A stretch of 64,000 bases of DNA from Hormoscilla sp. (GTDB lineage: Bacteria; Cyanobacteriota; Cyanobacteriia; Cyanobacteriales; Desertifilaceae). The stretch is taken from NCBI GenBank assembly GCA_051439505.1, contig JBFRWI010000135.1:32001-96000 (forward strand), in the 5' to 3' direction. Below, one piece after another: positions 8,253-33,365 of the stretch (positions within the stretch are counted from its first letter, which is position 1; each line of letters begins with the position of its first letter). The position numbers and the translations under genes are program-made. Under the pieces are notes generated by a model. The model saw only the letters and a program-made list of their open reading frames with translations. It did not search any database and was not told the origin of the DNA.

Positions 8253-8726
8253 ATGACTGAAAATCGAATTAGTGCCAGTTTAACGCCTGAAGATAAACTG
8301 GCAGTTCTCGCCGCGATCGCTACGATCAAGGAAAAGTTACCATTTTTGCAGGGGTTGAGTCCCGAGGAAAGTAAATCTTTACCGCGTTTCGGGGATAAAA
8401 GTCGGGGGTTTGTGACCAAGGCGTTGGAAGTGGCGACCCAAAACCCAGATTTTTTGCCTCGGTCTTTTGACATTGAGGAGATGCGCAAAGATGTGGAGTT
8501 GTTCGAGGCCCTTTATCCTATTACTTTGGCCTTGAGTCAACTCCAAGAACTTCTGGACGATACAGCGGCCTTGGCAGGAAGCGAGGCTTATATGGCAGCT
8601 TTGGCGGTCTACAACTATGCCAAGGCCACCAAGGGAAATGCGGGGTTAGAAGCGGCGGTGGACGATATGGCCCGTCGGTTCGCCCGCAAGTCCGGCGGTG
8701 GGGCGTCACAACAGCCTGAGTCTTAG
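8253..8726 (+). CDS. Hypothetical all-alpha protein (157 aa) adjacent to a 21-bp tandem array
   Basis: RBS ggaggag at 8237-8243; ENRISASL...LPFLQGLSPEE...GDKSRGFVTKALE...AGSEAYMAALAVYNYAK; recalled as a widespread uncharacterised family. Confidence 0.8.
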   Translation: MTENRISASLTPEDKLAVLAAIATIKEKLPFLQGLSPEESKSLPRFGDKSRGFVTKALEVATQNPDFLPRSFDIEEMRKDVELFEALYPITLALSQLQELLDDTAALAGSEAYMAALAVYNYAKATKGNAGLEAAVDDMARRFARKSGGGASQQPES

Positions 8727-8785
8727 TTCTGGGGAGGGTACTTTGACCTCAACCGGCACCTACTAGCTGCAAACCCGTGCCCCAC

Positions 8786-9016
8786 TGTTGGGGTTTTGGA
8801 CCTCTCGGTTCGGGTTTTAAACCTCTCGGTCGGGGTTTAAAACCTCTCCGTTGGGGTTTAAAACCTCTCCGTTGGGGTTTAAAACCTCTCGGTTGGGGTT
8901 TTAAACCTCTCGGTTGGGGTTTTGGACCTCTCGGTCGGGGTTTAAAACCTCTCGGTCGGGGTTTTGGACCTCTCGGTCGGGGTTTTAAACCTCTCCGTTG
9001 GGGTTTTGGACCTCTC
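8786..9016. repeat. Tandem array, 11 x 21 bp, consensus (G/C)GT(T/C)GGGGTTT(T/A)(AA/GG)ACCTCTC
   Basis: Units counted directly; each ends in acctctc at 21-bp spacing from 8806 to 9016. Confidence 0.97.
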
Positions 9017-9209
9017 AAGAGGCCATTCGGGCCGTTTCATTCTTCCCGGTCACCCATGACGAAGGTTCAAGACAGTTTAGGCCATGAGGGCAGACCGGTG
9101 TTAAGAGAGACCATGGCCCGCTACCGGTCGGACAGGTCAAAATTAAGAAGGGTCAGCCCTTGTTGAAGGGTAATTGGATATCATAGTTAACAATATAAAC
9201 GGGAGAAAT

Positions 9210-9575
9210 ATGAGCAACGAAAATTCGATCGGGCTAGCGGATTTGATTCAACAAGTCAAGCAGGAATTGCTGATGCCTGCACCGGATGGCGAAACAGATA
9301 TCCCGATATTGGCGGTTGATGCTGTGGAACTGGAGTTACAGGTGCGGGTGAAAAAAGCCGCACAGGGGGGGATTAAAATCTATGTTTTGGAGATGGGTGC
9401 TGGTGGCAGTCGCGATGACGTGCAAAGTATTAAGGTGAAGTTGTCTCCCCTTTTGAATAAGCAACAGCTGTTGAAGATTTATCAAAAGCGCTATCCGGAA
9501 CGTTGGCCGGAATTGTTGGAGAAGGCGATAGAAGCGACGACGAAAGGATCGGATGGAACGGATCTGATAGAATAA
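9210..9575 (+). CDS. Trypco2 (trypsin co-occurring domain 2) family protein
   Basis: IGLADLIQQVKQEL...VELELQVRV...GGIKIYVLEMGAGG...QSIKVKLSP matches the Trypco2 pattern. Confidence 0.7.
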   Translation: MSNENSIGLADLIQQVKQELLMPAPDGETDIPILAVDAVELELQVRVKKAAQGGIKIYVLEMGAGGSRDDVQSIKVKLSPLLNKQQLLKIYQKRYPERWPELLEKAIEATTKGSDGTDLIE

Positions 9576-9593
9576 GAGTAAAGCAAGAGAGTT

Positions 9594-11465
9594 ATGAAAC
9601 TTCTGGAGTTATACCTGTCACCTCTTGACAAGACTAGGTTCAAAGTGATTGTGACTCAGTCTCCGGTGGCGGGAGGTGGAGAAACTGAATCCTCGTTGCC
9701 TTTCTCCGATGCGGAGGATAACAGGCGAGGTACTCTTATAAAAAGTTTGGAATTTTCTAGCTTTGAACCTCGTAAGTTCTCGAAGAAGGGAGAACAGGAT
9801 TGGATGGTAAAGGCGGGGTTTTTAGCAAAAGATGGCAAGTATTTCCATCCTAATTATCTGGCTAACATCGGTAAAGCACTCTACCAGGCCCTGTTCCCTA
9901 AAGGTAGTCAAGTAGAGCAGTGCTTGAAAAGTTCGATTCATAAGGCTCAGTCTGAATCGACTCAACTGGTAGTACGGCTGAAATTTATAGAAAATGTGGA
10001 AGGACGGGCTCGACTAATAGATTATCCTTGGGAACTGGTGCATGATTCCCAAAAGTTTCTGTCTCATTACGGAGTGGAATTTTATCGATACATTGACTAC
10101 CTGGGGGCGGTACCAAATTTATCTCCTCTGGAAAAGTTGCATGTTTTGGTGGTATCATCCTCGGCAGGTGACGATCGACTGGGACTAAAACGGCTCCCTG
10201 GAAACAGGCAAAACCCACAAGGGGAACTGCGATCGATTCGGAAAGGGTTGGAAACAGCTAGGAATAAGGGGCATATTTCCCTGGAAGAACTGCCAAACCC
10301 CACCTTCGGGGAATTAAGAAAATATCTCACGGATCATCCCGGGAATAACGCGCCCCACGTGCTGCATTTTGACGGCCATGGTTTGTTTGGCAAGCGCTGT
10401 CAGCACTGTCAGACGATGCACTCGGGAACAATACCTCAACAATGTAGAAAATGTAATGCCGAGTTGCCTTCTCCCCAAGGATATCTGGTGTTTGAGGATG
10501 AAGATGGAAATGCAGATTACATCAGTGCTAAAGAACTGGGAAATCTGCTGCAACAGTCTAGTTTGAGTGACGGTTCCAGTCAAACTGGGGGCGTGGTGCT
10601 AGTGGTATTGAGTGCTTGTCAGTCGGGGATGGCAATAGCGGGAGAGTCAGTGTTTAATGGTGTAGCCCAAAATCTCATTGCCCATCAGGTGCCCGCAGTG
10701 GTGGCGATGCAATATTCGGTGAAAGTTGGTAGCGCCACTAAGTTTGCCGAACAGTTTTATCGTTCCCTGGGGCAGAAAAATTCCCTAGCGGTGGCGGTGA
10801 GTCAGGGACGCGCGGCCATGGGAGTGGAGGGAAATCAGTGGTATCGCCCGGTGCTTTATCTGCGCTGGCAGGATAACGAGGGCGGTCAACTATTTGCCTC
10901 ACGAAAGTGCAAAATCAATATCGTAATTTTTGTAATTCTCTCGTTATTGATTGGTATCTTATTCCCGGAGTTGCCTAGAATTTTCCCTTTTGTATCTAAA
11001 AACATAGAAAAAACAGAAAGCCCGTTGTCAGAACAAAATATCAAGTATAGAAAGTTGGAGAAATTATTGGCATCGAGACAGTTTCAAGAGGCTGATGAGG
11101 AAACCTGGTGCCTTATGTTGCAGGCTGCGGGACAAACATGTCCAGGATTTCCGCCTAAAGACTTAATTGAAACGGTTTCCTGCCCGGACTTGCTCACGAT
11201 CGACAAGTTGTGGGTAAAATATAGCGATGGACGCTTCGGCTTTTCCATCCAGAACCAAATTTATCGACAATTATTGGCAAACCCAAAAATAGAAGATCAA
11301 ATCTGGAAAGACTTTGCAGTTCGAGTGGGCTGGCAAAATGGACAGATCTATTTCAAGAATCTAAAATTGGCTTCATCACCCCGTGGTCACCTCCCGTGGC
11401 GTGCTGGTCAGTATCAGATTCAGTTGCTCTTCGATCGCGTACAAGGATGTAACCCGCGCAAATGA
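9594..11465 (+). CDS. CHAT (caspase-like) domain protein with Zn-ribbon insert, TM helix and C-terminal GUN4 domain
   Basis: YPWEL, HVLHFDGHG (catalytic His), VVLSACQS (catalytic Cys), VVAMQ; CQHC...CRKC; TM IVIFVILSLLIGILF; GUN4 motif YRKLEKLL...EADEET...IDKLWVKYSDGRFGFSIQ...VGW. Confidence 0.85.
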   Translation: MKLLELYLSPLDKTRFKVIVTQSPVAGGGETESSLPFSDAEDNRRGTLIKSLEFSSFEPRKFSKKGEQDWMVKAGFLAKDGKYFHPNYLANIGKALYQALFPKGSQVEQCLKSSIHKAQSESTQLVVRLKFIENVEGRARLIDYPWELVHDSQKFLSHYGVEFYRYIDYLGAVPNLSPLEKLHVLVVSSSAGDDRLGLKRLPGNRQNPQGELRSIRKGLETARNKGHISLEELPNPTFGELRKYLTDHPGNNAPHVLHFDGHGLFGKRCQHCQTMHSGTIPQQCRKCNAELPSPQGYLVFEDEDGNADYISAKELGNLLQQSSLSDGSSQTGGVVLVVLSACQSGMAIAGESVFNGVAQNLIAHQVPAVVAMQYSVKVGSATKFAEQFYRSLGQKNSLAVAVSQGRAAMGVEGNQWYRPVLYLRWQDNEGGQLFASRKCKINIVIFVILSLLIGILFPELPRIFPFVSKNIEKTESPLSEQNIKYRKLEKLLASRQFQEADEETWCLMLQAAGQTCPGFPPKDLIETVSCPDLLTIDKLWVKYSDGRFGFSIQNQIYRQLLANPKIEDQIWKDFAVRVGWQNGQIYFKNLKLASSPRGHLPWRAGQYQIQLLFDRVQGCNPRK

Positions 11466-11585
11466 GAAGGTCTGAAACAATTGACAGCTGGTTGTAGCCC
11501 GGATATTGGCCCAAAGGAAAAGCCAGCAGCAGACTCGGTCTGTCTTTGTAGTGTTAATAAATTACCCATTACCCACGATCTAATT

Positions 11586-12308
11586 ATGAAATCCTCTAAT
11601 AACCGACACAATTTAGTCAAAACCGGGATAGTTGTTTTAGCCGCGATCGCCCCCGCGATCGTCACCGCTAGCGGAATAACACCCACTACTCCCGCTACAG
11701 CAGTTCCCACCACCACACAAAGTTGTACTCTGCCCCCACCCCCAGTGGGTGCAACTGCTGTTTTGGTGGATGACTTGGAAGATGGTGATAGTTTTAACCA
11801 ATTTCGAGGAACCTGGTTTACCTACGACGATCGCGATGTGGGAGGAGATTCATACATCATCTATAAAAATGGTAATAGCGCTTTTAAGGCTAGTTCTGGA
11901 GGCCCCAACGGGTCCCTTTTTGCTGCCAGGATTCAAGGTGTAGTCACCAACACTTATCCGTATGGCTTTTTAGGCATGGGAACGAATCTCCATAACAGTA
12001 ACTGCGCAGTAGATATCACGCAATATTATAATGGCATTAAATTTTGGGCTAAAGGAGACGGCAAACGTTATCGACTCAAGTTGCGATCGCCCGTCACGGG
12101 AGATGACGGTTTTGGTTATAACTTCGTAGCCGATACCCAATGGAAAGAATATGACGTCAAGTTTGGGCAACTCCAACAAGGAGGTCCGGGCCCAGGAGCC
12201 GATCTAAACGATGCTTTAAGGCAGGTAATTAGCATTAACTGGCAAACCGTCGATCAGCCTCACGGTTCTATCGAGTTAATTGTGGATAATATCCGTTTTA
12301 CTCAATAG
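11586..12308 (+). CDS. Secreted CBM11/CIA30-like carbohydrate-binding protein
   Basis: Signal peptide, Thr/Pro linker, LVDDLEDGD...WFTYDD...GIKFWAKGDGKRYRLKL...WKEY...VDNIRF. Confidence 0.7.
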   Translation: MKSSNNRHNLVKTGIVVLAAIAPAIVTASGITPTTPATAVPTTTQSCTLPPPPVGATAVLVDDLEDGDSFNQFRGTWFTYDDRDVGGDSYIIYKNGNSAFKASSGGPNGSLFAARIQGVVTNTYPYGFLGMGTNLHNSNCAVDITQYYNGIKFWAKGDGKRYRLKLRSPVTGDDGFGYNFVADTQWKEYDVKFGQLQQGGPGPGADLNDALRQVISINWQTVDQPHGSIELIVDNIRFTQ

Positions 12309-12674
12309 TAGTGATGGGAACAGCTGAAACACTTGACAGATATTGGTCGAGTCACCACTGAGGACCCCATCCTTGAGGTTCGCAAAGAGCGATCGGGGCC
12401 ACTGCCAACAAAAGAGATCGCTCTTTTTCCCTGCTGTTAACTTGTTAAATTGATATTGAGCGAATGCGAACATTTGCAGATTATCTCGCAGATGGAGAGT
12501 GAAGAGTAGGGAGGTGCGGTTAAAAAGAGGGTGCGATCGCGACGGGTGGTTTAATTGAAAGCGATTTTAATTGCCCCTGTCAGACTGCCCCAGACAATTC
12601 TGCCGAGTTACGATACAGTTATAATTGTTAACCAGTAGGGACATTCAAAAACATCAACCAAGGAGAAATCAACA

Positions 12675-12998
12675 ATGGAAAAATTCGACCGAATAGCGAT
12701 CGACCCCAAAATTGGCCTGGGGCAACCAACAATAAGGAATATGCGGATAACAGTCAGCTTTGTCATCAAAATGTTAGCCAGCACAAAATCTATCGAAGCA
12801 GTTCTCGAAGCATATCCAGAATTGGAAGCAGAAGATATAGAACAAGCCTTAGAATACGCCGCTTGGGCCGTTTCCGATCGCATTGTTAATATTCCTAAGC
12901 AAACGCCAAAGCTGCTTGAATTGCTTCGCGCGTCAGTCGCGGATGATCATCCAGCAGTTGTTCTTGAGTCTCCCCCGCAGCCAGACTTTCGAGGATAA
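12675..12998 (+). CDS. DUF433 domain protein; C-terminus runs into the opposite-strand gene
   Basis: RIAIDPKIGLGQPTIRNMRITV...YPELEAEDIEQALEYAA; the native end is probably near 12896. Confidence 0.8.
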   Translation: MEKFDRIAIDPKIGLGQPTIRNMRITVSFVIKMLASTKSIEAVLEAYPELEAEDIEQALEYAAWAVSDRIVNIPKQTPKLLELLRASVADDHPAVVLESPPQPDFRG

Positions 12999-13101
12999 AT
13001 TCGACAGTAATGCGAGTGCCGGCGATGGTTGGTTTACCCATCATTACTTTAGGATCCGAAACTATAAATTGTCGATACCGATCCATGATTTTTACCTTCA
13101 A
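12895..13101 (-). CDS. DUF433 domain protein, probably 3'-truncated
   Basis: IVSDPKVMMGKPTIAGTRITVEFILESLAAG...HPRLTREAIQAALAFA. Confidence 0.75.
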   Translation of the reverse strand: MKVKIMDRYRQFIVSDPKVMMGKPTIAGTRITVEFILESLAAGETQEQLLDDHPRLTREAIQAALAFA

Positions 13102-13115
13102 AAAGTTGTATTAAT

Positions 13116-13385
13116 TTATTGTAGCATAAGCGATCGTAATCGCCGCCACTGCCAATAAGGGCGATCGCTCTTGGCTATAGGGACAACCCCAATTGTACCC
13201 AAAGCTATTGCGAGTTCTTCCATATAGGCATCATCCAAATGACCGATCGCCTTAACAATTCGATACTTGTCAATTACTCTAACCTGTATTTGTAAAATTA
13301 CCACAGGTCGTATTCCTGCTTGTTCCGTACCAATTACGGGATTGAGATCGCACAATACCACATCGCCTCGGTTAACGTTTACCAT
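13116..13385 (-). pseudogene. PemK/MazF toxin with an in-frame internal deletion
   Basis: RGDVVLCDLNPVIGTEQAGIRPVVILQ is joined directly to IQVRVIDKYRI; the central ~40 residues typical of MazF/PemK are absent. Confidence 0.75.
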
Positions 13386-13609
13386 TGAATTTCTCCACTA
13401 GCTAAACGTTCCTCATAGTCTTGCAAGTTAGATAAATAATCGGAAAAATCAGATTCTGCTAATTCTATTCCCTCTGTAAAATGCACCCACAACTGCCTGC
13501 GATCGCCATCGGGTTTCGTCAACAAGAAGCTAACAAAATCATTAACTTCCCGAACCAGGTCTTCAGGCAGTTGATTAATCTTAGCAATAGTTTCTTCGCG
13601 GACGTTCAT
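13379..13609 (-). CDS. DUF2281-like antitoxin
   Basis: MNVREETIAKINQLPEDLVREVNDFVSFL; RBS ggagg; overlaps the PemK start. Confidence 0.65.
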   Translation of the reverse strand: MNVREETIAKINQLPEDLVREVNDFVSFLLTKPDGDRRQLWVHFTEGIELAESDFSDYLSNLQDYEERLASGEIQW

Positions 13610-13794
13610 CTGTCCTCCTATGTTAGTTTTTAGTTTGACTTTGAGATATTCTAGCATGGCTATTGGCAGTTAGCACTAAGCATAACTTGACATAATCACG
13701 TTTAATTTTGTTCGACAATGCCCCAACTAACAACAAATGCGATCGGCCATCCAAATTTCACCGGTGTATCGGAAATGACAACACTACAAAATAT

Positions 13795-14028
13795 TTAATC
13801 ATCCCACTCCGCCCTTAGTGCTTTTTGAAATTCAAGGGAGTCAACCCGTTTTGGCAGAAAGCCAAACAGGTCAAAAGGCTCATCGGGTTCTTCAGGAACT
13901 TCTGTTAGTGGCGACAAAGGTTGTACCACGACAATAACTTCTACTAAACCCGGTTCCACAGCATCGGGCAGGGGAATTTCCAGTAGGCGATCGCTGCCAA
14001 CTGAAACAACTTTCCGAATAGTTTCCAT
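13795..14028 (-). CDS. Small hypothetical protein, antitoxin-like
   Basis: METIRKVVSVGSDRLLEIPLP...VEVIVVV...DSLEFQKALRAEWDD resembles cyanobacterial PIN-toxin-associated antitoxins. Confidence 0.55.
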   Translation of the reverse strand: METIRKVVSVGSDRLLEIPLPDAVEPGLVEVIVVVQPLSPLTEVPEEPDEPFDLFGFLPKRVDSLEFQKALRAEWDD

Positions 14029-14100
14029 AATTACTCTTTTGACACAAGGCAACAATAATTTATAATCAAACCATTCTACTGTTATATTTTACTGCCGAAT

Positions 14101-15105
14101 ATGGCAAAGCAAGGTTGGACAGAACTCCACGCCCAGCTACATCGGACATTACGCACGCGCCAACTCCTGCCCAAAAACAGCCCCATCCTGGTGGCAGTAT
14201 CGGGGGGACAAGACTCTCTATGCTTAATAAAATTACTGCTAGACTTGCAGTCCAAATGGGGGTGGTCCCTGGCGATCGCCCACTGCGATCATCGCTGGCG
14301 TGGGGACTCCCAAGCCAACGCCCAGCACGTAGAAAAGCTGGCCCAAACTTGGGGGCTCCCATATTACCAACAGACAGCAACCGAAGCCTTAAATAGTGAA
14401 GCAGCAGCCAGGCAGTGGCGCTATCAGGCCCTCAGGGCGATCGCCACAAACTCCGGGCAGAAGTACATCGTCACCGGACACACGGCGAGCGATCGGGCGG
14501 AAACCCTACTATACAATCTCATTCGCGGTAGTGGAGCCGACGGTTTACAAGCCCTAACCTGGAAACGCCCCCTCGATCCCGGTATCCAGCTAGTCCGTCC
14601 CCTGCTAGAAAGCACCCGCAGTCAAACTGGCGCCTTTTGCCACCAGTTCCACATCCCCATCTGGGAAGACTCCACCAACCAAGAGTTAAAATATGCCCGC
14701 AATCGCATTCGCCGAGATTTAATTCCATATTTACAGCAATATATCAACCCCAAAGCCGAAGAGAACTTGGCGAAGACAGCAGAATTACTGCAAGCCGAAG
14801 TAGAGTATCTAGAACAGACAGCCACCCAGATCCGAAAGGAAGCTCAACATCCCAGTCAACCAGGCTTAAATCGTCGGATAGTGAGTGCAGTACCCCTGGC
14901 CCTCCAGCGCCGAGTACTGCGACAATTTTTGACCATGGCCCTATCCGGCAGTCCTAGCTTCGACCAGATAGAGAAAATTCGCAGCCTGATATCAGCCCCC
15001 AACCGGTCCAACACCGATCCTTTTCCCGGGGGGGCGATCGCCCGAGTAGAAGACCCCTGGATCTGGATCATCCCAGGCCATAACCCAAATGCATCTGGGC
15101 CCTAA
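14101..15105 (+). CDS. tilS: tRNA(Ile)-lysidine synthetase
   Basis: AVSGGQDS PP-loop, EAAARQWRY, TGHTASDRAET, RPLL, DSTN, RNRIR. Confidence 0.97.
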   Translation: MAKQGWTELHAQLHRTLRTRQLLPKNSPILVAVSGGQDSLCLIKLLLDLQSKWGWSLAIAHCDHRWRGDSQANAQHVEKLAQTWGLPYYQQTATEALNSEAAARQWRYQALRAIATNSGQKYIVTGHTASDRAETLLYNLIRGSGADGLQALTWKRPLDPGIQLVRPLLESTRSQTGAFCHQFHIPIWEDSTNQELKYARNRIRRDLIPYLQQYINPKAEENLAKTAELLQAEVEYLEQTATQIRKEAQHPSQPGLNRRIVSAVPLALQRRVLRQFLTMALSGSPSFDQIEKIRSLISAPNRSNTDPFPGGAIARVEDPWIWIIPGHNPNASGP

Positions 15106-16832
15106 TTAGTGAGACTGGCAATAGTTTGCTGCATTTGGGCGATCGCCTGAAGTTGATAGTCACCCGTTTCCTGCGCTTGGTTGAGGGTCTCAGAAATTGC
15201 CTCCAGTTTTGAGCGCAGGCCATTAACCATATCCTGCATTGGCTGTAGAGTCTCTTGATATAGATTCACCATCGCCCTAACTTCTGTAGCTGAGACCCGC
15301 TGTGCTTGGCAATTAAGCTCCAGTTCTTTGATTTCATTGCCTTTGGCCTCTTGTTCGCTCATCTGAGATTTAATCAAACTTTCTGCTTGACCAATAGCCT
15401 CCCGCATCTGAGCAATTTCCCCTTCCAACTTTTGCAGTTCCTCTGTCTGTGCTTGTCGCTGTGTCTCCAACTGTTCCAGCACCGGTCCCAGATTAATCTG
15501 CGCTCCTTTTCCCGGCTCCATCGGAAATCCCTGCCGGCGTTTCAACACCACTTCATGCTGATTGAGGATCTCTTCTCGTTCTCGGAGATTCCGGCGGGAA
15601 CCTACCAAGGATTCATTCAGGTACTGATAGCTTTCCTCCTCACCCGAGAGTTCCGTCTCCAGAGTCAGGCGATCGTACTCACTCGCTTGCTCTATCTTCT
15701 GTTTCAGTTCATCAATTGCCTGAAGTTGGTATTGCAGTTCTTCTTCCTGGTCTTTAACAAAACCTGATGCTTTATCTAGATCCCGTTGCAAATCTCCTAC
15801 AATTCCTTGCAGCTCTTCTATCGGCATCTTTTCTAGAGCTTCCAAATCCACGCTCACAATCACTTGACCCGCCGACTCCGCTAGCTGGTTAATTTGTTGA
15901 TATAACTCTTCGGTAGTTTTCAGATTTAGCCCCAATGTTTCAGCATATTCTTGCTTCAGACTCAAAGCTTTCTGCTGCGTTTTCAACTCTGAGTTTGCCT
16001 GAGCTAGGGCCTCTTCTGCTTGCTGCCACTGTTGCTTTCTATTTTCCATATCTGCCGTGATTCTGTCAACTTCCGCTTGCAGATCTTCAGCTGCATTGCT
16101 TTGTTGATCCAACTTTTGCCAGTAGCTATCCAGATTGCCCTGCTGAGAGTTCGCCAGTTCAAACACCTGATTTAATTCTGACCGCACCGATTCCGTCGGG
16201 GCGATCGCACCCGATAAGCGATTCAATATCTCCTGAATTTTCCCACTTTGCTCTTCATCCAACACCGACGCCTGCTGCAACTGAGCCTGTCCCTCTTCCA
16301 GACGCTGCTGTGCCCCCCGCAGTTGAGCCCATGCTCCCTCCAGTTCTTGTTGGTTGCGTTCTATCTCTGACTTCAGGCGATCGGCCTCTTCACGCGCCTT
16401 TTCAATTTCGAGACGTTGTTCCTCTATCTTTTCCGACTCTTCCTCCAACGCCTCCAGTTGTTCTTGCCGAGCTTGCATTTCCATTTCCCGGCGATTCAAC
16501 TCCTGCGCTTGATAAGTCAGAGACTGTTTCCACGTCTCTATTTCTTCTTCTTGATTCTTAAACTTTTCCTGCAATTTTGAAAAATTTTGCAGAATTGCCA
16601 CCAAAGGTCGTCCCGCCTTTTGTGGCGGTCGCTGCACCTGTTTGCTCGCCGATAGTTCTATCAGTACCAATTCCCCATCTTCAAAATTCTTTGCCTGTTC
16701 ATCAGCAATCACCTCCTCTTTTTCCGCGTTCCAATTCTGCTCACTACGCTGACTTGCCAGCAGTTTAAATTCTGCTTTCGCACCTACCCCAAAAGTTCCC
16801 ACCTTTTTTTGTACTTCCGCTAGATACAGCAC
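15102..16832 (-). CDS. hmpF: Pilus motility/taxis coiled-coil protein HmpF
   Basis: MLYLAEVQKK N-terminus, long coiled coil, divergent from the hmpA-E cluster as in Nostoc. Confidence 0.9.
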   Translation of the reverse strand: MLYLAEVQKKVGTFGVGAKAEFKLLASQRSEQNWNAEKEEVIADEQAKNFEDGELVLIELSASKQVQRPPQKAGRPLVAILQNFSKLQEKFKNQEEEIETWKQSLTYQAQELNRREMEMQARQEQLEALEEESEKIEEQRLEIEKAREEADRLKSEIERNQQELEGAWAQLRGAQQRLEEGQAQLQQASVLDEEQSGKIQEILNRLSGAIAPTESVRSELNQVFELANSQQGNLDSYWQKLDQQSNAAEDLQAEVDRITADMENRKQQWQQAEEALAQANSELKTQQKALSLKQEYAETLGLNLKTTEELYQQINQLAESAGQVIVSVDLEALEKMPIEELQGIVGDLQRDLDKASGFVKDQEEELQYQLQAIDELKQKIEQASEYDRLTLETELSGEEESYQYLNESLVGSRRNLREREEILNQHEVVLKRRQGFPMEPGKGAQINLGPVLEQLETQRQAQTEELQKLEGEIAQMREAIGQAESLIKSQMSEQEAKGNEIKELELNCQAQRVSATEVRAMVNLYQETLQPMQDMVNGLRSKLEAISETLNQAQETGDYQLQAIAQMQQTIASLTN

Positions 16833-19279: not shown

Positions 19280-19369
19280 ATTGGAGAGTGTTGCATAGAT
19301 GAGACAAAACATAGGTAAACATAGGTATTTACCCTAGTGGGAGGCAGCGCAGTTAGCAGGTAGGAAGTT

Positions 19370-23627: not shown

Positions 23628-23852
23628 AAGACAACTGTGGGCCTCTGCGAAGCACTGGTAACAGGTTAAAAGCGGTAGATCGCAAGGGCTAAAAGATGAT
23701 TGTCTACAATTGTCATCAAAGTAGATGAGCTGTGGGAGGTATGTCCTTAAGATAATACAATAGGATTAACCGATTAATAGGATTAACCGATTTGTGTAAA
23801 GGTCACCAAGGAACAATCGGCTGTTGAAAAGAGCAATCAAAGAGGAGAAAAA

Positions 23853-26800: not shown

Positions 26801-27746
26801 CGGAAAGGGCACTACTTTTACTATCCGGCTGCCTTTAACTCTGAGTATTTCTAAAGCTCTCTGCTGCATTAGCAATTGGGCCAGGATTGCTTTCCCGATG
26901 GATGGTGTGGAAGATATGTTGGATGTGCCCAAAGAGCGGATATCTGTCAATAGCGAAGGTCAATCCTGCATTATGTGGCGGGATATCCAGTTGCCTTTCC
27001 GACCTCTATCAGAACTGCTACAATATAATCGTCAAATCGGTCGCGCTCGGGTGTTTGGCGCCAACGAGGAAGAGGATATTGTTTCGATTGTGGTCCTGCG
27101 CGGTGCTGGTGAATACATTGCCCTCCAGGTGGATCAGGTGCTGGGCGAGCAGGAAATCGTGATCAAGCAGCTGGAAGGCCCGGTACCTAAGCCCATGGGA
27201 GTGGCTGGCGCTACGGTGTTGGGGGATAGTCGGATCATGCCGATCGCGGATGTGCTGGAACTGATTGACCTCTCGAAGGGACGTTCCCCACGGCGGGGAA
27301 CCTGGGATTACGATGCGACTGAAAATATTTCCGAACCACCACAGCTCAAAACTGAGACGACTGTACTGATTGTGGATGACTCAATTACCGTGCGGGAACT
27401 GCTGTCGATGACCTTTAATAAGGCTGGTTACCGGGTGGAACAAGCTCGTGACGGTCAGGATGCTTGGGATAAATTGCGATCGGGTCTGGCTTGTGATATT
27501 ATTTTCTGTGACATGGAAATGCCCAGAATGAATGGTCTCGAACTGCTGGAGCGGCTTCAGAAAGACGAGCACCTCGATCGTATACCTATGGCGATGCTGA
27601 CTTCTCGCGGTGCTGATAAGTACAAGGAAAAGGCGGCTAACTTGGGTGCTAAGGGATATTTCACTAAGCCTTATTTGGAAGAAGCTTTGCTGGAGGCCGC
27701 TCAACAAATGCTTAAAGGCGAAGTCCTCATGAGTGCTGCGAGTTGA
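23853..27746 (+). CDS. hmpE: CheA-like hybrid kinase (HmpE/PilL), no recognisable Hpt domain
   Basis: KVPIKQLDNLSNLVGELVVNR dimerisation region, HATPase (DDGAGID, GRGVGLDVV, GTTF), CheW, C-terminal receiver; about 640-aa acidic N-terminus. Confidence 0.92.
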   Translation: MVANSRELETLNELFAGLESEEELRFSPEKHVIKEEEISISNKIESSFPSKERRLTREVLSSEELEITAKDIEELERVGELDISNIQLTTEDGKLPSQKGQNAEGAWENYGEMTADPKNAPFRKNLQGKNPNSKKQKSEKSGYKLGAEPVATQSQTLAEAESEDFDDLLAIGGTDNDQSENWDVLEPLESYSSQSQEINDLELELETLETPEDWSDFQMSESESEDDSTLMPEGSLEAKEMLSMEDLDLGDYSESALSELELEMSAAPATGMELEELSLDSLEELSAETEPDTLHFQGEEPSRESGAQAEMLSMADLDLGDSSESMLSELELEMESAPATGMELEELSLDSLEELSAETEPDTSIDSEELDMDLFSEYGQESEEVDEATFDSIQIETENHTVPEKSELLQDIDLGEDSDLMWDWEESEAAGESEMPPDMDGNLLGSGQSTDDIEAMLYDFSDTAMDATEELADDFDFDSIDLDLERELLGDRTTSPKNVTAAMTSALDSDVLDWDLLGDIGVDLIGEQTDDISLTVADAETVSEGQTPPWEELEALLGYEEPASLGDTEKVVFDRLEEFLNASPESPQAESVGDSDTESDVSGTVGTKSSSKNDDFDELQALLEDADKLGGPSIKSSSIQRPQQMNSRPRPIEQNMKVPIKQLDNLSNLVGELVVNRNSLEQDQDRLRTTLDNLLYQVQQLNDVGGRMQDLYERSLLEASLLSSRASNRGGPGSKGTVSNNQHHPGEEFDPDELDSFTAFHELSQEMIELIVRVRESASDIEFIVDETDQVTRQFRQVTTQLQEGLTRTRMIPFAQTVDKLPPAVKRVCMQLNKQAQIQIEGRETLIDKMIQEHLSGPMTHLINNAMTHGVESPEVRETMGKPPVGQITVRAFHQGNQTVISVSDDGAGIDAERVKNKGIEKGLISQEEAKTISRLDLYDLLFHPGFSTKDQVDDLAGRGVGLDVVRTSLRDIRGAINIDSTLGKGTTFTIRLPLTLSISKALCCISNWARIAFPMDGVEDMLDVPKERISVNSEGQSCIMWRDIQLPFRPLSELLQYNRQIGRARVFGANEEEDIVSIVVLRGAGEYIALQVDQVLGEQEIVIKQLEGPVPKPMGVAGATVLGDSRIMPIADVLELIDLSKGRSPRRGTWDYDATENISEPPQLKTETTVLIVDDSITVRELLSMTFNKAGYRVEQARDGQDAWDKLRSGLACDIIFCDMEMPRMNGLELLERLQKDEHLDRIPMAMLTSRGADKYKEKAANLGAKGYFTKPYLEEALLEAAQQMLKGEVLMSAAS
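24569..24942. repeat. Intragenic 164-bp direct repeat (period 210 bp) in hmpE
   Basis: 24569-24732 and 24779-24942 encode EMLSMxDLDLGD...LEELSAETEPDT twice. Confidence 0.9.
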
Positions 27747-27922
27747 TGGTTGTCAGTTGCTAGTTGTCAGTTGATGGTTGTCAGCCGAACCGTGCCGGAA
27801 AAATCGGCCATTGTTACATGCACGCGCACGCCCCCCCACCCTCAAGGGTGGGGCTACAATACAAAGCCCGCCTGCGCGGGCTTGATACCGCCAACTTTAA
27901 ATTTGATTAAAAGTACCATATT

Positions 27923-30007
27923 ATGTCGGATTCAAACCAGCAGATAGTCTATCCAGTCAGCCGCAAGGTTGACCAAATCGATTTGCTTCACGGAGTAAAG
28001 GTGCCAGACCCTTATAGATGGCTAGAAGACCCAGACTCGGAAGAAACTAAGGCTTGGGTTGAGGCTCAGAATCAGGGAACTTTTGGTTATCTGGGTGAAA
28101 TTCAAGCCCGGGTGAAGCTTCAGCAGCGACTGACTCAGTTGTGGGATTTTGAAAAATATGGGATTCCTTTTAATCGGGGCGATCGCTATTTTTATTCCCG
28201 CAATAGCGGTCTGCAAAATCAATATGTCCTTTACACTTTGACAGACCTGTCCGGTGAAGCAAGGGTGCTGCTGGACCCGAATACTCTCTCGGATGATGGG
28301 ACGATCGCCCTATCGGGGACGGCGATTACTGAAGATGGGAAGTTAATGGCTTATGGCCTGTCTAGTTCTGGTTCTGATTGGCAAGAATGGCAGGTGCGGG
28401 ATGTGGAAACGGGTGAGGATTTACCAGATTTGATTAAATGGGTGAAGTTCTCGGGCGCATCTTGGACTAAGGATGGTAAGGGCTTTTTCTACAGTCGCTA
28501 CGATGAACCGAATGAAGCGACGAAGTTGGAAGATGTCAATTATTACCAGAAGCTTTATTATCATCATCTGGGTCAACCCCAATCAGAGGACCTGCTAATT
28601 TACGAACGTCCCGACCACAAGGAATGGATGTTTAATGGCAATGTAACTGAGGATGGACGTTATTTAATTATTAGCGTCGGGCGGGGAACAGATCCTAAAA
28701 ATTTGCTTTTCTATCGGGATTTAACTAAACCAGAGGCACCGGTAGTAGAACTGATTGGCGAGTTTGAAGCTAGCTATAGCTTTATCAATAACGATGGCTC
28801 GTTGTTCTGGTTGCAGACTGATTTGGATGCGCCCCGGAGTCGGGTAATTGCTATTGATGTCGATAGCCCCGATCGCGCAAATTGGCAAGAGGTGATCCCC
28901 CAAGCGGCGGAAGTGCTGGAAGATGTGGGAATATTGCATAACCAGTTTGTGGTCAATTACCTGCAAGATGCCCGATCGCTTGTCAAGATTTTCAACTTGG
29001 ACGGGACTTTGGTGCGAGAGGTAAAATTGCCGGGGATTGGTTCTGTGCGGGGATTTTACGGTCAGCGTCACGATCGGGAAACCTTTTACATGTTTACCGG
29101 TTTTACCACGCCGGGAACTATTTACCGCTACGATCTGGTAACGGACGAAAGTACCATCTATCGGCAACCCCAGGTAGATATTTCTTTTGATCCAGCTGAT
29201 TACGAGACGCAGCAGATTTTCTATAGCAGCAAGGATGGGACCAAAGTCCCGATGTTTATCACCCACAAAAAAGGGTTGCAGTTGGATGGGAATAATCCTA
29301 CTTACCTCTATGGCTATGGTGGATTTAATATCTCGCTGACGCCCAATTTCTCCATCTCTAATCTGGTGTGGATGGAGATGGGTGGTGTCTATGCGGTCCC
29401 GAATTTGCGTGGCGGTGGCGAGTACGGTGAGGAATGGCACCAGGCGGGGACGAAGCTACAGAAGCAGAATGTGTTTGATGATTTTATCGCGGCGGCTGAG
29501 TGGCTGATCGATCGCAAATACACTTCATCAGCAAAACTGGCCATTGCTGGCGGCAGTAATGGGGGTTTATTGGTGGGTGCTTGCATGACCCAACGCCCGG
29601 ATCTGTTTGCGGCGGCGCTACCAGCCGTGGGGGTGCTGGATATGCTGCGCTTCCATAAGTTTACCATTGGCTGGGCTTGGTGTTCGGATTACGGTTCTCC
29701 TGACGAGCCCGAGGAGTTTAAGGCCCTTTATGCTTATTCGCCTTTGCATAATCTTAAACCTGGCACGGCTTACCCAGCAACACTGATTACTACGGCAGAT
29801 CATGACGATCGGGTGGTTCCTGCTCATAGTTTCAAGTTTGCTGCGGCTTTGCAGGAGGCCCATGAAGGTGAAAATCCCGTGTTAATCAGAATTGACACTA
29901 AGGCGGGACATGGTGGTGGCAAGCCTACTGCTAAGATTATTGAAGAGATTGCCGATAAGTTTGCCTTTTTGGTGCGGGTGATGGATATGAAAATGGCTAA
30001 TGGCTAA
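27923..30007 (+). CDS. Prolyl oligopeptidase (S9A)
   Basis: DPYRWLED, YGYGGF, RGGGEYG, GGSNGG nucleophile, DHDDRV, AGHG. Confidence 0.96.
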   Translation: MSDSNQQIVYPVSRKVDQIDLLHGVKVPDPYRWLEDPDSEETKAWVEAQNQGTFGYLGEIQARVKLQQRLTQLWDFEKYGIPFNRGDRYFYSRNSGLQNQYVLYTLTDLSGEARVLLDPNTLSDDGTIALSGTAITEDGKLMAYGLSSSGSDWQEWQVRDVETGEDLPDLIKWVKFSGASWTKDGKGFFYSRYDEPNEATKLEDVNYYQKLYYHHLGQPQSEDLLIYERPDHKEWMFNGNVTEDGRYLIISVGRGTDPKNLLFYRDLTKPEAPVVELIGEFEASYSFINNDGSLFWLQTDLDAPRSRVIAIDVDSPDRANWQEVIPQAAEVLEDVGILHNQFVVNYLQDARSLVKIFNLDGTLVREVKLPGIGSVRGFYGQRHDRETFYMFTGFTTPGTIYRYDLVTDESTIYRQPQVDISFDPADYETQQIFYSSKDGTKVPMFITHKKGLQLDGNNPTYLYGYGGFNISLTPNFSISNLVWMEMGGVYAVPNLRGGGEYGEEWHQAGTKLQKQNVFDDFIAAAEWLIDRKYTSSAKLAIAGGSNGGLLVGACMTQRPDLFAAALPAVGVLDMLRFHKFTIGWAWCSDYGSPDEPEEFKALYAYSPLHNLKPGTAYPATLITTADHDDRVVPAHSFKFAAALQEAHEGENPVLIRIDTKAGHGGGKPTAKIIEEIADKFAFLVRVMDMKMANG

Positions 30008-30029
30008 TGGCTAATGGCTAATGGCTAAT
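29992..30029. repeat. STRR heptamer (aatggct)n
   Basis: About 5 tandem copies at the gene end; other heptamer runs at about 44727-44756, 55085-55122, 57158-57185 and 45286-45315. Confidence 0.85.
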
Positions 30030-30116
30030 AGTAGGGTGGTCAAAACCAGTTGGTAGTAGGCTTCACTTTTGACCTCCCCCTACCCCCCATGAGAGGGAAA
30101 AAAAATTATTAAACCC

Positions 30117-30146
30117 TTGACAAGTTCCACTTCCGTTAGCTATACT
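30117..30146 (+). promoter_or_regulatory. Sigma70-type promoter
   Basis: TTGACA-N18-TATACT. Confidence 0.7.
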
Positions 30147-30227
30147 TTATTTAGCAATATTGGTTCATGGGGGCTTGGAAAATCAACGTAACACAAGCCC
30201 AAGCGAAACCAGGGATGCCCGGCCCGG

Positions 30228-30262
30228 ACTGCGCAAAAAGCGCCCTATTTGGGTTAAGCAAC
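30228..30262 (+). CRISPR. Solitary degenerate CRISPR-like repeat downstream of a leader-like sequence (putative mini-array)
   Basis: ACTGCGCAAAAAGCGCCCTATTTGGGTTAAGCAAC resembles cyanobacterial type I-D repeats (ATTGC...CCCTATTAGGGATTGAAAC); no second clear repeat and no cas genes in the window. Confidence 0.4.
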
Positions 30263-30330
30263 GGTTCTGAGGCGTTTTAGCGTAACTCCGGGTCAGGTAA
30301 ATCTCTAATTCGCTCACTTCGACTCCACAA

Positions 30331-30366
30331 GGAGAGCCCTGTGGCAGGGTTCTCCCTGCGCATTTT
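30331..30366 (+). terminator. Hairpin, probable terminator of the small transcript
   Basis: ggagagccctg-tgg-cagggttctcc followed within 7 nt by ttttt. Confidence 0.55.
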
Positions 30367-30477
30367 TAAATAATTTTGATAGTGAAGAAGGGGAGATGCC
30401 GCTGCAACTACAAATGAGCCGCACCCGGGTGGGCATTGCCCACCTTACAGCTGACGATTGTTTGGGAAAATATTACC

Positions 30478-31626
30478 GTGAATGAAGAACAACAGCAAAT
30501 AATAGAAAAAACAGACTCTGAGAATGAAGAGCAAAAATTGACGGCAGTAACAGAAAGCAGTTATGCTGAAAAAACAGACCGGATCCGCTCTTGGGTGCAA
30601 CTGATTAAGTCTGTTACCCCGCTAATATGGGCGATCGTAATTTTAGCTGTCCTCTTTCCCCTGCTGGGTCAATTATTTATCTCTCAAGCTTTTCCTCAGC
30701 TCAGAAATGTTCCCGAAAAGACTGAGATTGTGGTTGTGGAAAAGCCTGACTGGAGTCAGGTTGATCGGGCAATAGTCGAGGCCCTGAATGAGGCCCATGC
30801 CAGTGCGGAAAATTATGCCTCGGAACAACTGGATCTCTGGATTGCGGAATTGCTCGATCGGGTGGACAATAACTTTTTAGATTGGTACTTTGGCTACTTG
30901 AACCAGAAGCAAATAGAATTGAAAAGCTTTTTCTGGCAAATATCTTCAGCTGCAGGCCATTTGCTGAACTCAGATAATCCCACTGCCAATGAAAAAGTGG
31001 TCCAAGTGATTACCTCCGATTTCCAGCGCGAATTTGCCAAACGAGTCCTGAGACCAACTATCGCTCAACTGAGACTAGAACGATTAATTCAAGCTACTGT
31101 TAACCTTTACCTGGATGAGTTGAGTGGTAAGATCGAGAAAATTCAAGGAAGTTATAACATTACCCAGGCTGACTGGGATCGATATCTCAGTGATATTGCG
31201 ATCGCGATTAATGATACTGATGGGAAGATCTCTAATCTGTCCCTGAAGGTTTTGGCCGCTGGCGGGGGTTATTTGGCACTCAAGCCTTTAGTTGTTCCGA
31301 TCGCGGCTAAAATTGGCAGTAAAGTGGTGGCGACCATGTCTGGTAAAGCGGGGGGCAAAATTGCTGCGAAAACCGGTACAGCGCTGGCGGGCAAAATCGG
31401 AGCCCAACTGCTAGACCCGATCGTCGGCATTGGCATTATCATTTGGGATGTCTGGGATTATCAGAACACTGTCAAGGTCGATCGACCGATTTTACATGAC
31501 AATATTGCCGATTATTTGCAGGAAGTTAAATATTCTTTGCTCTATAATTCGGAAAATGGGATAATGAGTGCGATCGTGCTTCTGGAGAAGGATCTTTCCA
31601 AATCACTTAGTGCGAAATCATCTTAG
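30478..31626 (+). CDS. Hypothetical membrane-anchored protein
   Basis: About 380-aa ORF, N-terminal TM, FLDWYFGY motif, Gly/Ala/Lys-rich hydrophobic hairpin near the C-terminus. Confidence 0.75.
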   Translation: MNEEQQQIIEKTDSENEEQKLTAVTESSYAEKTDRIRSWVQLIKSVTPLIWAIVILAVLFPLLGQLFISQAFPQLRNVPEKTEIVVVEKPDWSQVDRAIVEALNEAHASAENYASEQLDLWIAELLDRVDNNFLDWYFGYLNQKQIELKSFFWQISSAAGHLLNSDNPTANEKVVQVITSDFQREFAKRVLRPTIAQLRLERLIQATVNLYLDELSGKIEKIQGSYNITQADWDRYLSDIAIAINDTDGKISNLSLKVLAAGGGYLALKPLVVPIAAKIGSKVVATMSGKAGGKIAAKTGTALAGKIGAQLLDPIVGIGIIIWDVWDYQNTVKVDRPILHDNIADYLQEVKYSLLYNSENGIMSAIVLLEKDLSKSLSAKSS

Positions 31627-31671
31627 AAGGTGATTATTTGCATGAGTTGGGACAATATTCTCGCTCCCTCT

Positions 31672-32091
31672 TTAAAGAATCGTCAGATATGTTTGTGTCG
31701 GACTAATGGGTAACGGTTCTAACCTTTGGTTCTTTAAGTCCAGTTCTATTCCTAATGCTTCCAGGGGGATGACACCGAGTAATGGAGAACTCCCACCGGG
31801 GAGTTCTAAACATTCAAATGTCCCTTCTCGTGATAATAAGGAAATCTTCGCATCTTGAAATATCCTGGCTTTACCAATGCCACTTGCCGTTTCCACATCA
31901 ACTTCTTTTAACAATTCCAGTCCTAAAGATGCGATCGCCTCTTTTGGCAAGCACAACGTGGTGGCACCTGTATCCACGAGCACATTCGAGATCGTAATCG
32001 ATCGGACTTCCTCTGGGCTTATCATATCTCTTGTTGCCAGAATTTGGTCAGCACGATTCGTGACCACTAGCGTTGTTATAATTCTACCCAT
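31672..32091 (-). CDS. Clan AA (retropepsin-like) aspartic protease
   Basis: VLVDTGATTLCLP and LLGVIPLEALG motifs. Confidence 0.85.
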   Translation of the reverse strand: MGRIITTLVVTNRADQILATRDMISPEEVRSITISNVLVDTGATTLCLPKEAIASLGLELLKEVDVETASGIGKARIFQDAKISLLSREGTFECLELPGGSSPLLGVIPLEALGIELDLKNQRLEPLPISPTQTYLTIL

Positions 32092-32296
32092 TTGCGCTAT
32101 GCGGAGTTGATGACGTTTTTACTCCGACCTCCTCTAACTTGATTATAGCATAGAGATTCTGATTATGACGAATACCACTGGATCGCTTGACAGGCATTAG
32201 TTGATAGTATATCATGTCTATCAAGCGATGGGAGGATACCCGCAGCACGAGAATCCAGTTGATTTGTAACTCTGGTAGTTGACAATGGGCGATCGT

Positions 32297-32482
32297 CAAT
32301 ACTTCTCGGTTAACATCTTATTTGTCATTGCGAGGGGGGCGCACCATCCGACATTGTGGAGATCTCCGCGTAAGATCCCCCGAAGCAATCTCATGCGTTG
32401 TCGGGGAGATTGCTAGCCCTCCTGCGTCGGGCCGCTACGCTAACGGGGGGGGGATTGCTTCGTGCGGAGCAACGCTGCGCGA
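32297..32482. mobile_element. Partial MITE (family C, TIR CAATACTTCTCGGTTAA)
   Basis: First ~85 bp are near-identical to the reverse complement of 35826-35911; second TIR not found. Confidence 0.7.
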
Positions 32483-32488
32483 CTCAAT

Positions 32489-33100
32489 TCACAGAGTTAC
32501 CGTGACTATATTGCTTGGGGTTCCTTCTCCGGCTTTATTAATGGCGATTACTTGGTAAATTAACTCTTTCCCCCGGGGTTGATTGACTAGAGCGATTTCT
32601 GACTCTATAGCAGTGGCCACATCTACCGGCGCGTCTTCGGATGCGGTAATGCGACGCTGCACTTTATATGCTTTTACGGGGCCTCCTTCTTTAGGGCCTT
32701 TCCAATCTAATGCTATCCAGCCCGGTCCTTGAGAGACTATTTCCAGAGAGCGTACTTGCCCGGGAGCCCCTTGGGCACTGGGACGCGATCGCCCTCCCCA
32801 GCCCAATAGTTCCAGCTTTTCATCGCTATAATTTACGGTGTTCTCGGCATAGCGCAATACCCTTTTGAGGTTATCTGTCAGGGTTTCAAAAGCGTCATTT
32901 TTAGTGATTGTTGCCTCTTTGGCGGCGGCGGTAGCAGCGATCATCGCGTTTTGGGTGGCGATCAGGTTGTTAAGGTTAGCTGTCAACTCTTCTGTTGTCA
33001 GTGGTGGTGAGGGATAGACAGTGGTGTTAGCCGTTAATCCGCCGATTACAGCTTGAGCGAGGGCAATAACTTCTGATTCAGATCTTGGAAATTTAGCCAT
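32489..33100 (-). CDS. Fibronectin type III domain protein with N-terminal helical domain (203 aa, no signal peptide)
   Basis: APGQVRSL...IALDWKGPKEGGPVKAYKVQRR...YQVIAINKAGEGTPSN is an Fn3 signature; purine-rich RBS before ATG at 33100. Confidence 0.88.
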   Translation of the reverse strand: MAKFPRSESEVIALAQAVIGGLTANTTVYPSPPLTTEELTANLNNLIATQNAMIAATAAAKEATITKNDAFETLTDNLKRVLRYAENTVNYSDEKLELLGWGGRSRPSAQGAPGQVRSLEIVSQGPGWIALDWKGPKEGGPVKAYKVQRRITASEDAPVDVATAIESEIALVNQPRGKELIYQVIAINKAGEGTPSNIVTVTL

Positions 33101-33134
33101 TTTTGCCTCTTCCTTTACTCCCAATAGGTTTACA

Positions 33135-33365
33135 TTGGCTTTGAGTAAGCTTACTTTGGCTTTGAGTAAGCTTACTTTGGCTTTGAGTAAGCTTACTTTG
33201 GCTTTGAGTAAGCTTACTTTGGCTTTGAGTAAGCTTACTTTGGCTTTGGGTAAGCTTACTTTGGCTTTGGGTAAGCTTACTTTGGCTTTGGGTAAGCTTA
33301 CTTTGGCTTTGGGTAAGCTTACTTTGGCTTTGGGTAAGCTTACTTTGGCTTTGGGTAAGCTAGCA
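33135..33365. repeat. Tandem array, 11 x 21 bp, TTGGCTTTG(A/G)GTAAGCTTACT
   Basis: 5 A-variant units then 6 G-variant units (last degenerate); A-variant units contain the 12-bp palindrome AGTAAGCTTACT. Confidence 0.97.

Follow-up and report, generated by a model that had tools for sequence, protein, structure and literature searches.

The two gene–array pairs described here raise a double question: is a small gene that abuts an array of eleven 21-bp repeats an accident of its genome or one member of a recurring class and, if the latter, what does the encoded protein do with its array? The window, i.e. the whole 64,000-nt stretch that was analysed, covers positions 32,001 to 96,000 of contig JBFRWI010000135.1 (assembly GCA_051439505.1) from Hormoscilla sp., and the two pairs within it have unrelated repeat sequences. 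Among relatives of both genes, the link between gene and array is far above chance. The resulting cassette class is likely to be new in its architecture, as judged against a limited search of the open-access literature, and we tentatively infer a mechanism in which the protein would coat its array as double-stranded DNA.

Gene–array pairs in the window and among relatives

Gene 1 (8253..8726, + strand) encodes P0001, a 157-aa protein that is all-helical in its predicted structure and is present in single copy in this Hormoscilla genome (G000; 6.47 Mb). It is followed, 60 bp after its stop codon, by array 1 (8787-9016, + strand), in which a 21-bp unit is repeated 11.0 times with 88% match and no indels. 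Gene 2 (32489..33100, − strand) encodes P0002, a protein of 203 aa that comprises an N-terminal helical hairpin and a C-terminal Fn3 domain; array 2 (33130-33361, − strand), also 21 bp × 11.0 and with 99% match, lies upstream and is separated from the ATG by a 29-bp leader (33101..33129, − strand). A sequence-only reading of the window had reported two 21-bp, 11-copy arrays of unrelated sequence, each within 60 bp of a single small gene, and all of this is borne out, with end coordinates that were off by 1–5 bp: the similarity between the units of arrays 1 and 2 (0.364) is at the level of shuffled units (0.365–0.374). The shared architecture that it described holds for unit length and copy number and fails for position, the array being downstream of gene 1 and upstream of gene 2; nor do the pairs sit in one island rich in miniature inverted-repeat transposable elements (MITEs), since a 24-kb stretch that includes tilS, chemotaxis and peptidase genes separates them. 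GGTTT(T/A)AAACC is present in 7/11 units of array 1 and GGTTTTGGACC in 4, and GTAAGCTTAC is present 10 times in array 2. Neither protein contains a strongly hydrophobic stretch, the maximum 17-residue hydropathy being 1.46 for P0001 and 1.31 for P0002, a proxy rather than a signal-peptide prediction.

Arrays of this kind are common in G000: among those with at least four copies, 52 have a period of 21 bp and 21 have a period of 22 bp, and the unit types of arrays 1 and 2 occur at 15 and 7 loci, respectively. Two arrays in one window are, therefore, little proof by themselves. The relatives carry the evidence, and these were scored by lag-21 autocorrelation (threshold 0.45) over the 500 bp to either side of homologues that were non-identical and had at least 350 bp of flank; as the loci are the top hits from each search and mutually related, all of the counts overstate independence. 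In the P0001 family, a 21-bp array is found downstream in 64/85 loci and upstream in 10/83, whereas in the P0002 family it is found upstream in 37/73 and downstream in 17/87. The background for 450-bp windows is 1.2% of 1500 random G000 windows, and 10/433 distal flanks. Moreover, 21 is the best period in 64/67 and 37/38 of the positive flanks for the P0001 and P0002 families, respectively. A gene-plus-array class, suspected from the two window loci, thus exists: homologues carry 21-bp arrays well above background, on a side that is specific to the family, and, within each family, unit similarity rises with protein identity. The link reaches as far as Lysobacter (L171, L172).

P0001 is represented by 2,450 clusters at 50% identity; its closest named homologues are from Hormoscilla (88–95%), and family genes are present in 20/301 cyanobacterial genomes, with up to seven matches each, and in 3/301 genomes of the phylum of G301. 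Among 72,556 plasmid records, P0001 is found in one and P0002 in none, and viral contigs yield no P0001 locus and one P0002 locus. In a small number of P0001 relatives, the arrays are 18/27-bp or 22-bp ones (L024:3080-3352, L021:3048-3359), and a further relative, L028, shows a 22-bp signal upstream. P0002 has four paralogues in G000, of which two show a 21-bp signal upstream (0.55 and 0.48) and two do not; one paralogue that lacks the upstream array (G000:C77:19568-20274) has an insertion of ∼100 bp after codon 28.

Sibling pairs, found by looking beside other array families of G000, involve different proteins. A PQLLE-family gene (E 6e-72; L147, G000:C130:31772-32667) has an upstream 21-bp array, the unit type of which, at 24 loci, is the most abundant such family in G000; upstream 21-bp arrays with differing units are also seen at 3/3 PQLLE loci outside G000, making 4/4 overall. 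Four genes encoding HU-like proteins with DUF4469 (L139–L142; G000:C102:2251-3345, C144:58325-59418, C174:29249-30237 and C167:48324-49193) each have a downstream 22- or 23-bp array, i.e. 4/4 testable loci, a fifth such gene in G000 stopping at a contig end. The C167 gene matches HU-DNA_bdg (E 1e-25), HU-HIG and DUF4469, and those on C174 and C102 match DUF4469 with a weak HU match or none. Outside G000, a 23-bp array is present at one of the two HU-Ig loci in G602, at two plasmid HU-Ig loci the best lag is 23 but weak (0.41 and 0.43), and a weak viral HU-Ig hit has no array. The period, therefore, follows the protein fold, being 22/23 bp for HU-Ig and 21 bp for PQLLE. Among the 301 cyanobacterial genomes, PQLLE genes are found in two and DUF4469 genes in one, namely G000. 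A 220-aa gene with no family match and an upstream 21-bp array (L146; G000:C145:34136-35126) probably represents another member family; its product weakly resembles the P0002 profile (E 0.008), and its paralogue on C212 has no 21-bp array in 256 bp. Additionally, there are smaller 21/22-bp array families to which no cognate gene is assigned (C226/C111/C161, C58/C144/C91 and C100/C145/C161/C6/C198), the last with a possible link to the C198 paralogue of P0002.

Array anatomy and the predicted proteins

The unit of 21 bp corresponds to two helical turns of B-DNA and to seven codons. Unit numbers for gene-linked arrays, as given by a finder that needed at least five units, have medians of 10.4 (interquartile range 9.9–11.2, n = 36) and 11.4 (interquartile range 10.4–12.6, n = 53) in the two sets. 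The P0002-family units are old and degenerate but in exact phase: they are ∼65% alike, with identities of 0.65, 0.66 and 0.62 at lags of 21, 42 and 105, respectively, and of 0.23, equal to background, at lags of 20 and 22. Indels are absent from 22/38 P0002-family and 32/54 P0001-family arrays, and the within-array column identity ranges from 0.63 to 0.93, with no hypervariable block. In the P0002 family, the units keep to the gene strand, and 23/36 arrays share a phase of 10 mod 21 relative to the start codon (R = 0.89); for array 2 itself, the phase is 12 mod 21, and it fits the family profile at 0.53 on the gene strand versus 0.46 on the other. In the P0001 family, the gap from stop codon to array varies from 0 to 345 bp, and the arrays have a 7-bp sub-period.

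The units have dyad character, the mean number of paired positions being 12.9 versus 10.7 in the P0002 family and 12.3 versus 10.3 in the P0001 family. Across 20 distinct P0002-family unit consensuses, 122 complementary pairs are seen about the dyad versus 103.9 ± 4.7 after shuffling, a figure that belongs to the best of 21 axes and ignores kinship. Within this family, unit-by-unit compensation was not found, folding has no strand preference (z −3.23 versus −3.19), and G.T and A.C mismatches are about equally frequent (398 and 409). Given the covarying axis, the missing unit compensation and strand preference, and the parity of the mismatches, a symmetric double-stranded site fits better than a hairpin. 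Accordingly, a hairpin RNA in the P0002 family is unsupported by either folding or unit compensation, and the structured RNA that the sequence-only reading had entertained finds no strand-specific support there.

A number of other features of the arrays deserve mention. Alternating A/B units create a 42-bp higher-order repeat in the arrays of L102, L118 and L075, and lag 42 exceeds lag 21 by >0.05 in 5/38 P0002-family and 13/54 P0001-family arrays. Across the genome, the central five bases of the array 1 unit family come as reverse-complement pairs (TTAAA/TTTAA, TTTGG/CCAAA, TTGAA/TTCAA and TGAAA/TTTCA), which look as if the dyad centre flips. A 13-mer, TAAGTCGTTGATT, that follows the array at three loci (L068:1109-1121, L072:206-218 and L098:2683-2695) matches what we take to be the consensus for an integration host factor (IHF) site. 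This IHF-like motif is perfect in 3/8 post-array segments and is matched at 8/9 positions in 9/38 leaders (2.2 expected), mostly from one clade, such that it provides a lead only; it is not enriched after P0001 arrays (10/54 versus 7.5 expected). Promoters at the distal ends of P0002-family arrays (6/34 versus 2.8 expected, among related loci) are not persuasive. Some 200 bp past array 2 there is a promoter-like site (33559-33600, − strand; 11/12), although one such match, at 33587-33559, is found where 1.0 is expected; by eye, the site resembles degenerate array units plus the flank of array-2-type orphans (C2, C221) and, thus, it may be a detached array end.

Models from AlphaFold2 (AF2) predict helices in both proteins, as had been read from the sequences. 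For P0001 (predicted local distance difference test score, pLDDT, 93), these span residues 12-28, 37-42, 48-63, 74-125 and 133-141, and for P0002 (pLDDT 91), residues 8-24, 36-88 and 93-99, followed by the Fn3 domain, which superposes on a twitchin Fn3 domain with a Z-score of 16.0 and a root-mean-square deviation (rmsd) of 1.3 over 92 aligned residues. Both predicted layouts run helix-loop-long helix-short helix, with helices of 16/52/9 residues in P0001 and 17/53/7 in P0002. The suggestion that the two are diverged members of one class is consistent with this likeness in the models, but homology was not detected by sequence, either with BLASTP or with hhalign using full and trimmed profiles (probability <1%), and a cross-comparison of hidden Markov models (HMMs) with PQLLE as a bridge was not above the reversed control for P0001; homology between P0001 and P0002 is, therefore, unproven. 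The N-domain of P0002 does show remote sequence similarity to the duplicated PQLLE module: its HMM scores E < 0.01 in 34/120 PQLLE proteins and in none of the reversed controls, the full protein reaching 18.7 bits against the PQLLE family model NF052641, below the cut-off of 80. P0001 belongs to no Pfam, NCBIfam or PADLOC family, no known fold was found for it by sequence, and its model has no clear match in the PDB (Foldseek, VIA) or BFVD, the best having a Z-score of 5.3 and an rmsd of 3.2 over 70 aligned residues; this does not show that the fold is new. That the AF2 model of P0001 has no strand speaks against a ribbon-helix-helix (RHH) fold. Neither protein contains histidine, and no alignment column in either family is at least 50% His. 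By simple arithmetic with the standard helix rise, a helix of 52–53 residues would measure ∼78 Å, and 21 bp ∼71 Å.

Orphan arrays and the possible role of the cassettes

Most arrays are orphans that lie away from any family gene, and this is also true in near-complete genomes. One unit type has 33, 36 and 51 BLAST matches in G098, G206 and G260, respectively, where there are 6, 7 and 4 gene matches; another has 18, 19 and 20 in the same genomes, and array 1 has 29 in G602, although such matches overlap and should not be read as copy numbers. Twenty orphans in G206 are all intergenic, in mixed orientation to their neighbours, and have no remnant of a family gene. Two unit types tested over the 301 cyanobacterial genomes are present in 12 and 9 of them, and both are confined to the 20 genomes that bear P0001-family genes (0/281 others); within family f6, the unit types occur in 11/14 gene-bearing and 0/21 gene-less genomes. 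In this survey, two candidate units were scored per genome, kin are not independent and some genomes are incomplete. By analogy, such dependence of the orphans on a gene resembles a RAYT-REPIN system without the transposase. Orphan lengths are loose (2.6–15.9 units, median 8.2, n = 39), and a few of the G000 array loci share flank sequence with the cassette of gene 1. A MITE-end motif is present near 10/15, 12/24 and 3/7 of the G000 arrays of the P0001, PQLLE and P0002 types, respectively, counts that include the gene-linked array, versus 205/2000 controls. Nesting of orphans within inverted repeats, which had been suggested by eye, is not significant for repeats of at least 9 bp (8/37 versus 42/300 controls, and 1/20 in G206). 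A parallel count of direct repeats is confounded by leftover array units and carries no weight here. That most arrays are orphans, that other folds accompany 21–23-bp periods and that defence genes lie between array and gene in some relatives (see below) are observations that go beyond the sequence-only reading.

We propose that each cassette consists of a small protein gene and its own array of ∼11 phased 21-bp units, and that the protein would bind these units as double-stranded DNA, with one symmetric dimer for every unit, i.e. for every two helical turns. The dimers would build a cooperative coat over ∼230 bp that may act as an operator or a roadblock on transcription through or beyond the array, the target being the gene itself in the Fn3 family and, often, defence or conflict genes. 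Perhaps the coated array would also be prone to recombination, giving rise to orphan copies and to cargo between array and gene, although this is the most speculative step. We give the coating of some 230 bp by dimers, one per unit, a probability of about 0.45: it would explain the exact phase, the ∼11 units, the fold-linked period and a dyad that covaries with no hairpin signal. A number of observations weigh against it. No recognized DNA-binding fold emerged for P0001 or P0002 from family and fold searches, in which the N-domain of P0002 was not searched alone, and both families are slightly acidic (median net charges of −2 and −3); moreover, section 10 of PMC5499826 argues that DNA binding is improbable for the Ig-fused HU-HIG proteins. 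An adjacent array is detected in just 25/42 P0001 and 12/27 P0002 clusters (single linkage at 80% identity), or 8/23 and 4/9 at 70% identity. Palindromy is a tendency that is significant in 10/38 P0002-family and 13/54 P0001-family arrays, and the latter lean slightly towards pairing on the sense strand, with G.T and A.C mismatches numbering 442 and 373 and the sense strand folding better in 14/22. The fixed strand and start-codon phase fit a site in an mRNA leader equally well, and a coat by itself does not explain the origin of the orphans.

An alternative is that the array acts as RNA, as a leader in the P0002 and PQLLE families and a trailer in the P0001 and HU-Ig families, with translation, termination or stability, for the linked gene or those downstream, being controlled by a protein oligomer that binds the 21-nt units. 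The gene-strand units and constant phase of the P0002 family would suit this, as would the first long ORF past the P0001-family arrays, which is co-oriented in 36/50 cases versus 26/51 for the upstream neighbour, and the available text of PMC4679880 proposes such a role for heptamer repeats that precede start codons. Nevertheless, we consider it unlikely, given that, in the P0002 family, neither folding nor wobble pairs favour a strand and there is no unit-level compensation, that Rfam returned no match in eight loci, and that the 20 orphans have mixed orientations; a 231-bp contig within gene 1, recovered from a small share of one RNA run, says nothing either way. The 21-bp unit could also specify short heptad-repeat peptides that partner the protein, as had been raised on the strength of the seven codons, and there are an open sense frame in some Nostoc arrays and the 7-bp sub-period of the P0001-family arrays to recommend it. 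However, stop-free frames are at chance level (27/38 arrays versus 28.6 expected for P0002, and 45/54 versus 44.9 for P0001), in several arrays each of the six frames contains stops, and sibling arrays have periods of 22 and 23 bp, which makes this idea highly improbable.

A further alternative is that the cassette is a selfish element of the RAYT-REPIN type, in which the protein copies or mobilizes the array in trans, the orphans are its non-autonomous progeny and any regulation is incidental. Few genes are set against many dispersed arrays, both in G000 and in G098, G206 and G260, orphans of the two tested unit types are seen solely in gene-bearing genomes, MITE-end motifs are near many arrays, and a like layout for RAYT and REPIN is given in the available text of PMC3116915. 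Against this, there is no catalytic motif or conserved His column in either family, no match to a transposase or recombinase, and no significant enclosure of orphans by inverted repeats. Additionally, the Y1 transposases of G000 (three matches) could move arrays as passengers. On balance, this origin seems doubtful, yet coating of double-stranded DNA and protein-driven spread are not mutually exclusive. It is very unlikely that the arrays are neutral minisatellites, born beside an ancestral mobile gene, co-inherited with it and spread by the MITE traffic of the host without any interaction between protein and array. The abundance of arrays in the repeat-rich G000, the fact that unit similarity just tracks protein identity, the many clusters without an adjacent array and the loose orphan lengths all accord with neutrality, but three protein families share the 21-bp period although their units are unrelated (a fourth has 22/23 bp), exact phase and ∼10–11 units outlast 35% divergence, the phase relative to the start codon is constant, and orphans of the two tested unit types are missing from all 281 gene-less genomes.

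Genomic neighbourhood, known systems and significance

The cassette around gene 1 (leader, gene, array and 3′ spacer; 8170..9200, + strand, both ends approximate) is also seen at five Hormoscilla loci, where the immediate flanks differ. It is preceded by MITE-like dispersed repeats (8010..8150), and the 300 bp upstream of gene 1 are found as 234 BLAST pieces across the genome. Behind array 1 are co-oriented Trypco2 and CHAT/GUN4 genes (9210..11465, + strand), which constitute weak context, the PADLOC match to PD-T4-6 corresponding to the GUN4 part only. Adjoining gene 2 is a gene with a retroviral-type aspartyl protease domain (31672-32091, − strand), and nearby is an ORF of 396 aa (30436-31626, + strand) with no Pfam or PADLOC match. 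More widely, no conserved partner gene was found beside P0001- or P0002-family genes among the neighbours scanned (96/156 and 91/141, respectively, at E 1e-8). Recurring neighbours of the P0002 family are restriction-modification and defence domains and polysaccharide-synthesis genes; those of the P0001 family are NACHT-associated, CHAT, Uma2, HEAT and WD40 domains, beside housekeeping genes. These are counts without a matched control, from which no enrichment is claimed.

Among the 36 P0002-family genes with no array within 500 bp upstream, nine have a same-strand family array 0.45–2.5 kb further up, and 13 have an array directly downstream, usually before a second paralogue; the cargo counts cover flanks of up to 2.5 kb. 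Of the nine array–gene intervals, four contain a gene of defence type (DpdB/DndB, Mrr, a type II restriction enzyme and PDC-S59), and in the other five the scanned ORFs gave no match, the remainder being unscanned. Loci with genes between the family array and the Fn3 gene are L043, L068, L074 and L079, and also L058, L059, L072, L091 and L036. A duplication of the leader around the cargo, as a mark of integration, was not significant in 5/5 loci (p 0.10–0.35). Several of the Fn3 genes with intervening cargo have a short GC-rich palindrome ∼45–60 bp before the start codon. A bolder possibility, which we regard as distinctly unlikely, is that a widespread class of array-coating proteins of several folds is responsible for spreading its own 11-unit arrays through the chromosome, and that the array–gene junction would be where incoming defence genes land and are controlled, i.e. 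an integron-like adaptive platform without a recombinase of its own.

Guide arrays of the CRISPR and TIGR types have unique spacers between conserved repeats and a Cas or Nop-domain protein. The cassettes share with them a repeat array beside a gene, but they lack unique spacers, a Cas or Nop-domain match in Pfam, NCBIfam or PADLOC and, in the eight loci mentioned above, an Rfam match. Plasmid partition systems (ParR/parC, omega and the ParB of pCXC100) are alike in having a small protein gene beside around ten unspaced, degenerate, phased repeats and, if the proposed model is correct, the cooperative binding of dimers would be a further parallel (available text of PMC3074162). They differ in that the cassettes have no conserved NTPase neighbour, no ParA, ParM or TubZ gene being found among the scanned neighbour ORFs or beside the window genes, and no RHH fold in the models; moreover, the cassettes are almost absent from plasmids and viral contigs, are multi-copy on chromosomes and are accompanied by many orphan arrays. 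The resemblance to RAYT-REPIN lies in a single or low-copy gene with its own adjoining repeat type, a different repeat for each gene and many dispersed extragenic copies (available text of PMC3116915). However, the cassette proteins are not HUH/Y1 transposases, having no conserved His and no Y1_Tnp match, they belong to several unrelated folds, and the arrays comprise ∼11 head-to-tail units of 21–23 bp rather than inverted doublets that form hairpins.

The sibling cassettes of G000 that encode HU-Ig proteins fall within the HU-HIG clade (HU with Ig/DUF4469), whereas P0001 and P0002 are not of the HU fold. HU-HIG genes are described in PMC5499826 as patchy, expanded and operon-less, with a proposed role in biological conflict, and the main text of that paper, supplements excluded, uses the word ‘repeat’ once, and not for DNA arrays. 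PQLLE proteins (NF052641) have a tandem-duplicated helix-loop-long helix module that is remotely similar to the P0002 N-domain, in addition to their upstream 21-bp arrays, but P0002 is below the family cut-off, P0001 has no detectable similarity to it, and the family has no attached function. Finally, the heptamer repeats of Cyanobacteria and Beggiatoaceae are also tandem repeats that lie between genes close to start codons, have a patchy distribution across phyla and are suggested to be protein-binding sites; in the available text of PMC4679880, their units are of 7 nt, vary in copy number and lack a cognate gene alongside, as opposed to 21–23 bp and family-specific sequence in the cassettes. 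We rate the class as new because it fails the tested defining features of RAYT-REPIN, partition systems and guide arrays; no description of gene–array cassettes was found in the open-access full-text literature, a scope that leaves aside subscription papers and supplements.

If the proteins do bind their arrays, several large uncharacterized families (P0001, PQLLE, helical-Fn3 and HU-Ig) would gain a function, and there would be an explanation for a class of dispersed repeats that abounds in large cyanobacterial genomes. The cassettes would then constitute a new protein–repeat partnership alongside RAYT-REPIN and plasmid centromeres, one that offers many orthogonal protein–site pairs with a fixed period of 21–23 bp, and the module may regulate or attract neighbouring defence genes.

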